This document shows, one piece after another, positions 2,649 through 5,623 of a DNA stretch of 5,623 nucleotides. The notes under the pieces are model-generated. The model had not been told where the DNA came from. It saw only the letters and a program-made list of their open reading frames with translations, and did not search any database. The stretch lies in assembly GCF_003334385.1 (NCBI RefSeq), contig NZ_QOWN01000080.1; one strand, 5' to 3'. Position numbers and translations under genes: made by a program. Each line of letters opens with the position of its first letter. Position 1 is the stretch's first letter. Origin of the DNA: Escherichia coli. Its GTDB lineage: Bacteria > Pseudomonadota > Gammaproteobacteria > Enterobacterales > Enterobacteriaceae.

Positions 2649-3347
2649 ATGCAGGAGATCAACGAAGAAAGCCTGAATGAGTCGGTTAAATCAGAGCAGT
2701 CACCGCGGGTGGTACTCTGGGAAATTGACCTGACGGTGCAGGGTGGTGAGCGGTATTTTTTCTGTAATGAGCTGAATGAAAAAGGGGAGCCGGTCACCTA
2801 GCAGGGGCGGAAGTACCAGGCATACCCGATTGACGGCAGCGGCTTTGAGATGAACGGGAAAGGGAGCAGTGCCCGCCCGTCACTGACGGTGTCGAATCTG
2901 TTCGGGCTGGTTACCGGGATGGCGGAGGATTTGCAGAGCCTGGTGGGGGCCACGGTGGTTCGTCGCCGGGTGTATGCGCGTTTTCTGGATGCGGTGAATT
3001 TTGTGGCAGGCAATCCGGAGGCTGACCCGGAGCAGGAGCTGACGGACCGCTGGGTGGTGGAGCAGATGTCGCAGCTCACAGCCATGACGGCCTCGTTTGT
3101 GCTGGCGACACCGACGGAGACGGACGGTGCGTTGTTTCCCGGCCGCATCATGCTGGCGAACACCTGTATGTGGACCTACCGCTCTGATGAGTGTGGTTAC
3201 ACGGGCGGGGCGGTGGCGGATGAGTTCGATAAACCCACCACCGATATCCGTAAGGACAGATGCAGCAAGTGCATGCGCGGGTGTGAACTGCGCAGGAATG
3301 TCGGCAATTTTGGCGGTTTCCTTTCCATTAATAAACTTTCGCAGTAA
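2649..3347 (+). pseudogene. L: Minor tail protein L (lambda gpL-like) interrupted by an in-frame amber codon at 2799-2801
   Basis: ATG at 2649 (MQEINEESLNE...) to TAA at 3345-3347 is 699 nt, matching the lambda L length as I recall it. One TAG at 2799-2801 splits it into 2649..2801 and the track ORF 2850..3347, but the 16 codons between the stop and the next ATG (QGRKYQAYPIDGSGFE) continue in frame and read as tail-protein sequence. The track ORF start at 2595 would span the terminator hairpin and is rejected. Confidence 0.7.
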
Positions 3348-3357
3348 ATCCCGGTTT

Positions 3358-4101
3358 ATGACACAGACTGAATCAGCGATTCTGGCGCATACCCGGCGGT
3401 GTGCGCCTGCGGAGTCGTGCGGCTTCGTGATAACCACGACGGAGGGCGAGCGGTACCTGCCCTGTGTGAATATCTCCGCAGCGCCGGAGGCGTATTTTCG
3501 TATTGCCCCGGAAGACTGGCTGCGGGCGGAGATGCAGGGTGAGATTGTGGCGCTGGTTCACAGTCATCCCGGTGGTCTGCCCTGGCTGAGTGAGGCAGAC
3601 CGGCGACTGCAGATAAAAAGTGCCCTGCCCTGGTGGCTGGTCTGCCGGGGTGACATTCACAAATTCCGCTGCGTTCCGCACCTGACCGAACGGCGCTTTG
3701 CGCACGGGGTGACGGACTGTTACACGCTGTTCCGGGATGCATACCATCTGGCAGGCATTGATATGCCGGATTTTCACCGTGAGGATGACTGGTGGTGCAA
3801 CGGTCAGAACCTTTACCTGGACAATATGGAGGCAACGGGCTTTTACCGGGTGCCCCTGTCCTCTGCACTGCCGGGCGATATCCTGCTGTGCTGCTTCGGC
3901 GCATCGGTGGCTAATCATGCCGCCATTTACTGCGGCAACGGTGAACTGCTTCACCATCTGCCTGAACAACTGAGTAAACGGGAGAGGTATTCCGAAAAAT
4001 GGCAACGACGAACGCATTCTGTCTGGCGTCACCGCCACTGGCACGCATCTGCCTTCACGGGGATTTACAACGATTTGGCCGCCGCTTCAGCCTGTATGTG
4101 A
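3358..4101 (+). CDS. K: Tail tip assembly protein K (lambda gpK-like) with JAB/MPN (JAMM) and NlpC/P60 domains
   Basis: ATG at 3358 (MTQTESAILAH...). JAMM motif HSHPGGLPWLSEAD (H-x-H-x7-S-x2-D). NlpC/P60-like Cys (GVTDCYTLF) with downstream His residues (NHAAIYCG, LLHH). The track ORF start at 3097 is an out-of-frame read-in over the L 3' end and is rejected. No obvious Shine-Dalgarno; start is 10 nt after the L stop. Confidence 0.8.
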   Translation: MTQTESAILAHTRRCAPAESCGFVITTTEGERYLPCVNISAAPEAYFRIAPEDWLRAEMQGEIVALVHSHPGGLPWLSEADRRLQIKSALPWWLVCRGDIHKFRCVPHLTERRFAHGVTDCYTLFRDAYHLAGIDMPDFHREDDWWCNGQNLYLDNMEATGFYRVPLSSALPGDILLCCFGASVANHAAIYCGNGELLHHLPEQLSKRERYSEKWQRRTHSVWRHRHWHASAFTGIYNDLAAASACM

Positions 4102-4679
4102 ACACGGCGGCGGAAGCCATCCGCGCCCTGTCGCTGCAGGTGCCGGGATTCCGCCGTCAGATGAACGAAGGCTGGTACCAGATACGCATTGCCGGTGAGG
4201 ATACGGCACCGGAGGCGGTGTATGCCCGCCTTCACGAACCACTGGGTGAGGGAACGGTTATCCATATTGTGCCGCGACTGGCCGGAGCCGGAAAGGGCGG
4301 ACTACAGATTGTGCTGGGGGCAGCTGCCATTGTGGGGTCTTTCTTCACGGCCGGAGCATCAATGGCGTTATGGGGTTCAGCCCTGGCAGCCGGTGGTTTT
4401 TCTGCCACCACGATGCTGTTTTCACTGGGTGCCAGCATGATACTGGGCGGTGTGGCCCAGATGCTGGCCCCGAAGGCAAAAACACCGGATTACCGCGCAA
4501 CGGATAACGGCAGACAGAACACGTATTTTTCCTCACTGGACAACATGATTGCCCAGGGCAACCCGATGCCGGTGCCCTACGGTGAAATGCTGGTTGGTTC
4601 ACGACGTATCTCTCAGGACATCAGCACCCGTGATGAAGGCGGAGACGGAAAGGTGGTGGTTATTGGTCGACAGGGATAA
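3999..4679 (+). CDS. I: Tail assembly protein I (lambda gpI-like)
   Basis: 226-aa ORF with RICL-GDLQRFGRR near the N-terminus and a Gly/Ala-rich hydrophobic segment followed by QNTYFSSLDNM, as I recall for lambda I. Overlaps the K 3' end by 103 nt in another frame. Confidence 0.8.
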   Translation: MATTNAFCLASPPLARICLHGDLQRFGRRFSLYVNTAAEAIRALSLQVPGFRRQMNEGWYQIRIAGEDTAPEAVYARLHEPLGEGTVIHIVPRLAGAGKGGLQIVLGAAAIVGSFFTAGASMALWGSALAAGGFSATTMLFSLGASMILGGVAQMLAPKAKTPDYRATDNGRQNTYFSSLDNMIAQGNPMPVPYGEMLVGSRRISQDISTRDEGGDGKVVVIGRQG

Positions 4680-4692
4680 AACATAAAAAAAT

Positions 4693-4717
4693 CCCGCAGT
4701 GATCGCGGAGCTGCGGG
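4693..4717 (-). terminator. Probable intrinsic terminator oriented for minus-strand transcription
   Basis: Inverted repeat CCCGCAG (4693-4699) and CTGCGGG (4711-4717). On the minus strand the stem is followed by T7 (plus-strand A-run 4685-4691). No T-run follows it on the + strand. Confidence 0.45.
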
Positions 4718-4788
4718 GACAGACAAATGAAGATTAATGTTAAGGAGTTGTTTTTGTTACTCGGGCAAAAAAACACTAACGCAGCGAA

Positions 4789-4816
4789 ATTATAAGCGCC
4801 ACAGTCAGTGTGTGAA
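4789..4816 (-). promoter_or_regulatory. Candidate sigma70 promoter on the minus strand (TTCACA-N16-TATAAT)
   Basis: Read on the minus strand: TTCACA (complement of 4811-4816), 16-nt spacer, TATAAT (complement of 4789-4794). Fires toward the minus-strand terminator at 4693-4717. Confidence 0.35.
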
Positions 4817-4890
4817 AATGTGAAGATATTCAGAATTTTTATGCCATTACCGGTTTTAACCAACAGGATTATCGGTGGGCATGAAAGAAA

Positions 4891-4918
4891 ACCCCGGTAT
4901 CTGCTGATACCGGGGTTT
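4891..4918. terminator. GC-rich hairpin with T-rich flanks on both strands; possible bidirectional terminator
   Basis: ACCCCGGTATC (4891-4901) pairs with GATACCGGGGT (4906-4916), 4-nt loop. Followed by TTCTGTTT on the + strand and by TTTCTTTCAT on the minus strand. Confidence 0.4.
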
Positions 4919-5021
4919 CTGTTTAGCATGGCAGAAATGTGTTTCATGCTTTTCGGGCGAAGGATATCCGACTTCTGTACGGAATGGCAAGTGGCGGTTA
5001 ATTTATTCAGGGGAAGGCTGT

Positions 5022-5623
5022 ATGGGAAAAGGTGGCGGTAAGGCACACACGCCTCGTGAGGCGAAGGATAATCTCAAATCCACGCAGATGATGAGTGTGA
5101 TTGATGCGATTGGTGAGGGACCGATAGAAGGTCCGGTGAAGGGACTGCAGAGTATTCTGGTGAACAAAACCCCGCTGACGGACACGGACGGTAATCCCGT
5201 GATACACGGTGTGACTGCGGTCTGGCGTGCCGGGGAGCAGGAGCAGACACCGCCGGAAGGCTTTGAGTCCTCCGGGGCGGAAACCGGACCAGGCGTGGAG
5301 GTGACGAAGGCAAAGCCGGTGACGCGCACCATTACGTCCGCGAACATTGACCGCCTGCGGGTGACCTTCGGGGTGCAGTCACTGGTGGAGACCACCTCAA
5401 AGGGTGACCGTAACCCGACGTCTGTCCGCCTGCTGATTCAGCTTGAGCGTGGTGGTAAATGGATGACGGAAAAGGATGTCACCATTAACGGCAAGACCAC
5501 CTCGCAGTTCCTGGCGTCGGTGATTCTGGATAATCTGCCGCCCCGGCCCTTTAACATCCGGATGGTCAGGGAGACGGCGGACAGCACCACGGACCAACTG
5601 CAGAACAGAACGCTGTGGTCGTC
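5022..5623 (+). CDS. J: Tail tip / host-specificity protein J (lambda gpJ-like), N-terminal part; continues beyond the window
   Basis: ATG at 5022 preceded by GGGGAAGG (5010-5017). N-terminus MGKGGGKAHTPREAKDNLKSTQ... and later GEQEQTPPEGFESSG, PPRPFNIRM, STTDQLQN match what I recall of the lambda J N-terminus. Frame is open to the window end. Absent from the ORF track because no stop codon falls in the window. Confidence 0.85.
   Translation, partial: MGKGGGKAHTPREAKDNLKSTQMMSVIDAIGEGPIEGPVKGLQSILVNKTPLTDTDGNPVIHGVTAVWRAGEQEQTPPEGFESSGAETGPGVEVTKAKPVTRTITSANIDRLRVTFGVQSLVETTSKGDRNPTSVRLLIQLERGGKWMTEKDVTINGKTTSQFLASVILDNLPPRPFNIRMVRETADSTTDQLQNRTLWS

Follow-up and report, generated by a model that had tools for sequence, protein, structure and literature searches.

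What might a symmetrical, G+C-rich stem-loop be doing between two tail genes of an Escherichia coli prophage? The window analysed here, that is, the whole stretch of 5,623 nt, is the tail region of a lambdoid E. coli prophage and carries H, M, a porin moron, L, K, I and J. Gene coordinates were obtained by mapping the annotation of E. coli 2018-166 onto the window (with a 1-nt offset upstream of the porin gene); the region between I and J, queried as 343 bases (4680-5022), shares 100% identity with a prophage carried by that strain. On the + strand, the end of the tape measure gene H (to 748) and M (741-1082) are followed by the inserted gene for an OmpC-family porin (1289-2452; 497 bits), L (2649-3347) and K (3358-4101), and then by the two neighbours of the gap, the tail assembly gene I on the left (4098-4679, from the RefSeq annotation of the identical region) and the 5' end of the tail tip gene J on the right (5022-5623). 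In phage lambda I and J abut; here 342 bp lie between them. The gap is a mosaic, made up of a small RNA gene, pasB, on the left (4680-4845) and a 176-bp non-coding cassette, hereafter module B, on the right (4846-5021), the hairpin being located in the latter.

The core of the hairpin (4891-4916), which can be read on either strand, is a perfect G+C-rich stem of 11 bp, ACCCCGGTATC pairing with GATACCGGGGT, whose arms (4891-4901 and 4906-4916) enclose the four-nucleotide loop TGCT. Two further A-T pairs lengthen the stem to 13 bp, so that positions 4889-4918 read AAACCCCGGTATC TGCT GATACCGGGGTTT. The sequence-only reading that had pointed to this site described an 11-bp GC-rich stem, and both the sequence and the pairing bear this out. 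Folded as RNA, the core yields a free energy of -20.8 kcal/mol. With its flanks included the values are -27.5 kcal/mol (z = -6.68) for the + strand RNA and -24.8 kcal/mol (z = -6.40) for the - strand RNA, and none of 200 shuffled sequences matched the fold energy on either strand. The likelihood of such a stem arising by chance was assessed with 2000 random windows generated from a first-order Markov model of the whole 5,623-nt window: 0.55% of them contained a perfect stem of 11 bp or more with a loop of 3-8 nt, and none of the 2000 contained one of 13 bp or more, which rules out a chance origin. In its stability, short loop and G+C-rich stem the structure matches the stem-loops of intrinsic terminators.

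The sequences on either side of the stem, GAAAGAAAA to its left and TTTCTGTTT to its right, mirror each other, and a T/U-rich tail therefore follows the stem whichever strand is transcribed; mirrored A and T tracts of this sort are a hallmark of bidirectional terminators. The A-rich left flank ATGAAAGAAAA (4881-4890) becomes, on the - strand, the U-tail UUUUCUUUC, while the T-rich right flank (4917-4925; TTTCTGTTT in this window) supplies the U-tail of the tail-sense strand, UUUCUGUUU. A score of the d'Aubenton-Carafa type is positive in both directions, +11.4 on the + strand and +23.7 on the - strand, and the earlier description of the hairpin as bidirectional-looking, with T-rich tracts on both sides, is therefore sound. 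In intrinsic terminators some 7-9 U-rich nucleotides follow the stem at once; here each of the U-rich tails is broken by a C or a G, with tail scores (nT) of 2.8 on the + strand and 3.6 on the - strand versus 4.6 for the porin terminator described below, and termination may be partial because of these interruptions. A simple consensus scan for terminators did not include the hairpin in its output, probably because its greedy stem extension took up the first Ts of the tail, and the structure was scored by hand instead.

Copies of the hairpin collected from viral contigs and fetched loci, 118 in all, vary little. The left A-rich flank is unchanged in 113 of them and the right tail takes four forms, TTTCTCTTT (104 copies), TTTCTGTTT (6), TTTTCTTT (6) and GTTCTCTTT (2). 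The copy in prophage Sp12 of strain Sakai, which bears the TTTTCTTT tail, is a perfect palindrome of 18 bp per arm, A and T tracts included, and scores +24.7 and +23.7 on the two strands. The hairpin is a real, unannotated example of a familiar element and, as modelled by folding and scoring, looks like an ordinary two-way transcription stop signal; we infer from the same models both that termination would occur there and in which directions.

A companion terminator before L had also been proposed, and a strong, one-way element is present there (2610-2635, + strand), consisting of a stem at 2610-2628 followed by T7, with scores of +43.7 (+ strand) and -32.1 (- strand). It closes the porin moron and, as the sequence-only reading had it, tail-sense transcription from H and M to J must pass two terminator-like elements, this one and the hairpin. 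The 3' region of the porin moron (2453-2640) is highly structured as a whole, with a 14-bp perfect hairpin at 2470-2503 and smaller stems at 2504-2552 preceding the terminator. Its layout resembles that of the region downstream of nmpC in the K-12 prophage DLP12, with only small sequence identity; that region we take to encode the IpeX RNA, ipeX being unannotated in the K-12 record examined. Rfam gave a weak MicF-like match (2546-2636; E = 0.49), whose 28 bits fall short of the gathering score of 79, and variants of the region with 73-100% identity occur in 111 genomes. The porin 3' region could be a 3'-UTR small RNA acting on host porins. A further terminator-like hairpin lies inside gene M (943-962, + strand), where GGCATGGTGGTTACCGTGCC is followed by TTTTTG; it scores +12.8 and may be a chance occurrence.

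Module B (4846-5021) contains, besides the hairpin, a weak second stem-loop (4926-4951) and the ribosome-binding site of J, GGGGAAGG at 5010-5017. Its left boundary was placed by alignments with the prophages of E2348/69, Sakai Sp15 and phage PhiR12_2, homology with E2348/69 ending at about 4845. Since an unrelated spacer follows that point in E2348/69, in Sakai Sp11, Sp14 and Sp15 and in PhiR12_2, the hairpin belongs to a separable cassette of 176 bp. The cassette is missing from many phages that bear pasB and is combined with more than one version of the pasB body, strain MS20657 being one example. Of 5426 complete E. coli genomes 1446, about a quarter, carry it, with a median of one copy per genome; all but one of the records cover at least 80% of it, and identity is at least 99% in 1327 records and never below 95%. 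Carriers among the records listed include O157:H7 Sakai (Sp12), EDL933, O145, O111 and CFT073. The Sakai Sp12 gap spans 2217392-2217732 of NC_002695.2, with the hairpin at 2217496-2217521; Term-seq, dRNA-seq and total RNA-seq exist for this EHEC strain (Sy et al. 2020, PMC7547250; reused in a 2025 HnrS preprint).

The genomic setting of module B is as constant as its sequence. All 60 of the sites listed, out of 1806 places in E. coli, overlie the J gene, and each of the 118 collected copies lies in the I-J context with the same right flank, the left flank differing only where an IS element or a deletion intervenes. The hairpin is thus not scattered over many unrelated chromosomal sites in the manner of dispersed repeats of the REP or BIME kind. 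Among degraded prophages (L010, which is E. coli NZRM4165, and L041) a deletion is seen that begins within gene I and stops at the hairpin's 3' edge, and in one an IS3-family element has inserted some 20 nt to the left of the hairpin. What variation there is within module B falls mostly in the A and T tracts, the stem being invariant; with every copy at least 95% identical, a covariation test is impossible for this hairpin. In a loop-degenerate scan of one genome per species, E. albertii and a single MAG contig labelled Collinsella were the only places to yield the cassette. No partial homologue or donor was found elsewhere in phages and E. coli genomes (distant blastn for both), in viral contigs (exact pattern) or in one genome per species. 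The same 10-bp arm, CCCCGGTATC/GATACCGGGG, does recur in about 40 unrelated bacteria (L126-L168), in many of them with A/T-rich flanks; judged by sequence, these further matches are convergent terminator-like hairpins and not homologues.

Two long open reading frames span the hairpin, one of 66/77 amino acids on the + strand (a hypothetical protein in phage ASU11, of the 66-residue gp9c type) and one of 128 amino acids on the - strand. Both frames are shifted in Sakai Sp12, whose T tract is shorter by 1 nt, and in another copy (L092) that has a deletion in the A tract, and we therefore do not regard the hairpin region as coding. The covariance models of Rfam 15 gave no match at E <= 1 in 4680-5022, AgvB, AsxR and STnc100 being detected in a Sakai control locus. 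An anti-sRNA of the AgvB/AsxR type, suggested by the CA-rich - strand, was rejected on this basis, the gap being blank to Rfam and AgvB being found in the control; according to PMC4104026, the AgvB and AsxR genes sit at the pR' moron site. HnrS (66 nt, EcOnc10-12) was likewise set aside, as it maps near the terminase region of Sp12, outside the I-J gap.

The left part of the gap holds a complete pasB unit on the - strand, antisense to the tail operon, comprising a promoter, an RNA of 83-98 nt and a terminator. PasB is an Hfq-dependent small RNA of EPEC E2348/69, for which a Northern probe, AATCCCGCAGTGATCGCGGAGCT, and RNA ends at 1466343..1466261 have been published (PMC8550237, Table S6). The probe matches the + strand here exactly, and alignment with E2348/69 carries the published ends over to 4767..4685 of the window. 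The gene accordingly occupies 4685-4782: the published RNA of 83 nt corresponds to 4767..4685, and the promoter TTCACA-16-TATAAT (4789-4816, 11/12 matches) predicts a start near 4782. The terminator (4685-4717) has the stem CCCGCAG...CTGCGGG followed by a U7 run and lies 6 nt past the stop codon of I. Upstream of the promoter a conserved A+T-rich block extends to about 4845. The part of it upstream of the -35 element (4811-4845; GTGTGAAAATGTGAAGATATTCAGAAWTTTTAT), with its repeated TGTGAA, is kept in all pasB variants; it may be an UP element or the site of a regulator, which would fit the condition-dependent expression of PasB (PMC8550237). Between the conserved promoter block and the conserved terminator, the RNA body exists in at least four versions across related phages.

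Small RNAs reported earlier from strain Sakai may belong to the same family. EcOnc22, EcOnc23 and EcOnc24 are Hfq-bound, Hfq-dependent RNAs of about 85 nt (Tree et al. 2014) and fall in the I-J gaps of Sakai Sp15, Sp14 and Sp11 (NC_002695.2; loci L005, L006 and L007), given a coordinate shift of +137 to +146 that was measured at AgvB1 and assumed to hold at 2.2-2.9 Mb. As the shifted positions lie inside a divergent PasB homologue, these RNAs are probably of the PasB family; the equivalence is absent from both Pas papers (Pearl Mizrahi et al. 2021, PMC8550237; Zhu et al. 2026 preprint). The hairpin resembles PasB in being a non-coding feature of the I-J gap and part of the same mobile unit. 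It is nevertheless distinct, lying outside the 83-nt PasB transcript at more than 120 nt from the RNA ends 4767..4685, and E2348/69, the strain in which PasB was defined, is without it.

How, then, is the hairpin placed with respect to the transcription units around it? It stands between the pasB promoter, which fires leftwards, and the start of J, which is read rightwards. The extended stem ends 103 nt before position 5022, in accord with the previously quoted distance of about 100 nt; the accompanying phrase 'immediately upstream' was loose. Known bidirectional terminators usually sit between convergent genes. The hairpin has the G+C-rich stem, short loop, 5' A tract, 3' T tract and positive scores on both strands of the bidirectional intrinsic (Rho-independent) terminators of E. 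coli, but differs from them in its interrupted U-tails and in that pasB and J both point away from it. With both flanking units facing away, no annotated transcript ends at the hairpin; nor was one found among published transcripts.

A second comparison is with the morons, the promoter-gene-terminator cassettes inserted in lambdoid late operons, through which Q-modified polymerase continues (Juhala et al. 2000, cited in PMC4104026). Like these, module B is extra DNA between tail genes, possesses signals of its own and adjoins an autonomous gene, pasB; the porin gene with its terminator is a second such unit in the window. Unlike the terminators of morons, the hairpin is outside the transcription unit of pasB and upstream of its promoter, and so is not the moron's own terminator.

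Our preferred reading, to which we would assign about an even chance, is that the hairpin is a symmetric stem-loop of the intrinsic-terminator type and insulates transcription at a site where the tail operon has taken up a moron. As long as the prophage is repressed, the hairpin would stop ordinary RNA polymerase travelling in the tail-sense direction before J, whether this had leaked through L, K and I, was transcribing antisense to pasB or had started divergently at the A+T-rich pasB promoter. Since the cassette is symmetric, polymerase leaving J in the antisense direction would likewise be halted short of the pasB promoter. During lytic growth, Q-modified polymerase from the late promoter pR' would pass both the hairpin and the porin terminator at 2610-2628. 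By analogy with lambda and its morons, Q-dependent read-through is the natural expectation, and related complete prophages have a Q antiterminator gene upstream of the late operon on the same strand, among them Sakai Sp12, which carries module B. Dependence on Q, or insulation of the inserted units, had been suggested by the sequence-only reading, a reasonable view that finds partial support; the hairpin does lie in inserted, non-tail DNA, but the minus-strand pasB gene in the gap, which lends substance to the idea of insulation, had been overlooked.

The phages that lack module B offer an independent view of the same position. In E2348/69, Sakai Sp11, Sp14 and Sp15 and PhiR12_2 the I-J gap measures 240-250 bp, a short unrelated spacer replacing 4846-5021. 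The relative abundance of the two arrangements was gauged from 80 loci with close relatives of the J N-terminus, pooled with the loci gathered earlier: pasB with the short spacer occurred in 67 and pasB with module B in 117, figures that are biased by the 113 loci fetched by means of the hairpin itself. The short spacer carries a hairpin of its own, CAGGCAYYC-loop-GGGRTGCCTG followed by TTGTTTTT (E2348/69 PP6, Sakai Sp11/14/15, PhiR12_2 and 67 viral loci). Short spacers occur as 19 distinct sequences, every one with this hairpin and TTGTTTTT directly after the pasB promoter block, and the 45 nt that separate hairpin from J start exist in three unrelated versions. Read on the tail-sense strand, this hairpin has scores of +12 to +29; on the opposite strand they are -13 to -43. 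Within its stem 97.6% of cells are paired, compared with 35-44% when the partners are slid, and one pair covaries, being C-G in 6 sequences, U-A in 6 and U-G in 1; as a single pair among related sequences, this provides modest support.

The two hairpins are alike in occupying the same site, between the pasB promoter block and the ribosome-binding site of J, and in having a G+C-rich stem and a tail-sense T run. They differ in that the short-spacer hairpin has no sequence similarity to that of module B, is one-way by its scores, displays one compensatory pair and sits in a spacer of 55-65 bp rather than 176 bp. Two unrelated spacers, as far as their sequences tell, both position a tail-sense, terminator-like hairpin between the pasB promoter and the J ribosome-binding site, that of module B being predicted to act in the antisense direction as well. 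A third type of gap departs from this pattern. In 12 of the 80 loci retrieved with J, the gap contains a minus-strand gene for a Cu,Zn superoxide dismutase (sodC; 218 bits), as in the viral contigs L171 (812-1370) and L169. The gene has a minus-strand terminator of its own, GGTAAGGGG-CGGG-CCCCTTACC followed by TTTATTCC, and a pasB remnant without promoter adjoins it. No comparable hairpin was found before J in these sodC-type gaps, from which it follows that an insulator is not obligatory at the I-J junction.

The sodC-type gaps also bear on a different explanation, namely that module B could be a functionless relic of a decayed insertion. The hairpin would then be the terminator left over, together with a 5' region, from a deleted moron between pasB and J, and would be carried along because the cassette supplies the ribosome-binding site of J. 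Related phages do hold inserted genes at this place, sodC with its own minus-strand terminator beside the promoter-less pasB remnant being an example; the boundaries of module B are sharp and it recombines independently of the pasB body variants; and the deletions and the IS insertion of the degraded prophages end at or beside the hairpin. No donor can be named, however, as searches of phages, of E. coli genomes and of one genome for each species brought no partial homologue of module B to light elsewhere, and a relic would hardly be expected to retain a perfect palindrome with matched A and T tracts in 1446 genomes. Moreover, the independent short spacer keeps a terminator-like hairpin here and has done so with a compensatory change, which argues that the position is under selection. 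We consider a relic rather unlikely.

A second small RNA is another possibility, likewise an unlikely one. The hairpin would be the terminator of an unannotated minus-strand RNA of about 65-75 nt starting at about 4950-4960, and module B a small RNA moron in tandem with pasB. A promoter-like site, TTGCCA-18-TATCCT (4990..4961), is present at the right distance, but it matches at only 9 of 12 positions, and sites of such quality number 6 against 5.2 expected from shuffled sequence. The predicted RNA (4956..4884) would begin with a stem-loop, joined by an A-rich linker to the terminator hairpin, with a free energy of -29.9 kcal/mol and a z-score of -7.4; this z-score, however, is due to the hairpin alone, and the linker before the terminator is A-rich, not U-rich, with an interrupted U-tail to follow. 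The slightly higher score of the minus-strand tail relative to the plus-strand tail fits the proposal, as does the arrangement in the sodC-type gaps, where exactly this position relative to pasB is taken by a gene on the minus strand that has a terminator of its own. Against it, the published Sakai Hfq-CRAC table has no peak in the Sp12 I-J gap (a result uninformative on termination either way), the Rfam search was negative and the hairpin sequence was not found in the literature searched. The Hfq interaction data for E2348/69, a strain without module B, include nothing for the I-J gap but PasB among the interactions listed. That module B is in fact a second autonomous small RNA gene, placed in tandem with pasB and encoding on the minus strand an RNA of about 70 nt that ends at the hairpin, strikes us as more doubtful still.

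It is improbable, too, that the hairpin acts on the late mRNA as an element of stability or processing. It might block 3' exonucleases, so that the L-K-I portion outlives J, or protect J after cleavage of a PasB:mRNA duplex. In favour of this, PasB is complementary, without a mismatch, to the part of the late transcript that lies just upstream of the hairpin, three stem-loops are predicted for the tail-sense RNA of the cassette, and the tail-sense orientation is common to the short spacer and module B. The argument is a purely inferential one, however; 103 nt separate the hairpin from the J start, it is not at a predicted 5' end, and the T run conserved after the short-spacer hairpin is a terminator feature for which a stability element has no need.

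Finally, a role as a DNA-level palindrome, i.e. a site bound by a dimeric protein or used in recombination, has very little to recommend it. The inverted repeat is perfect, with up to 18 bp per arm in Sakai Sp12, and a rearrangement endpoint coincides with the hairpin edge in one degraded prophage. But G+C-rich arms between runs of A and T are what marks a terminator, the reappearance of the same 10-bp arm in about 40 unrelated species, with A/T-rich flanks, indicates a generic design of RNA hairpin, and there is a single copy per prophage, with no partner site.

Taken by itself the hairpin is of little consequence, being a further example of a terminator-type hairpin where a moron joins a tail operon and fitting the textbook picture of Q read-through. 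The setting is of broader interest, the I-J gap of many E. coli prophages being a modular, non-coding insertion site that receives pasB and one of two unrelated spacers. Should the second small RNA prove real, about a quarter of E. coli genomes would carry an array of two small RNAs at the I-J junction, one member of which had never been noticed. If instead the hairpin terminates transcription as an insulator, it would define how the expression of PasB and the silence of the tail genes are kept separate in lysogens.
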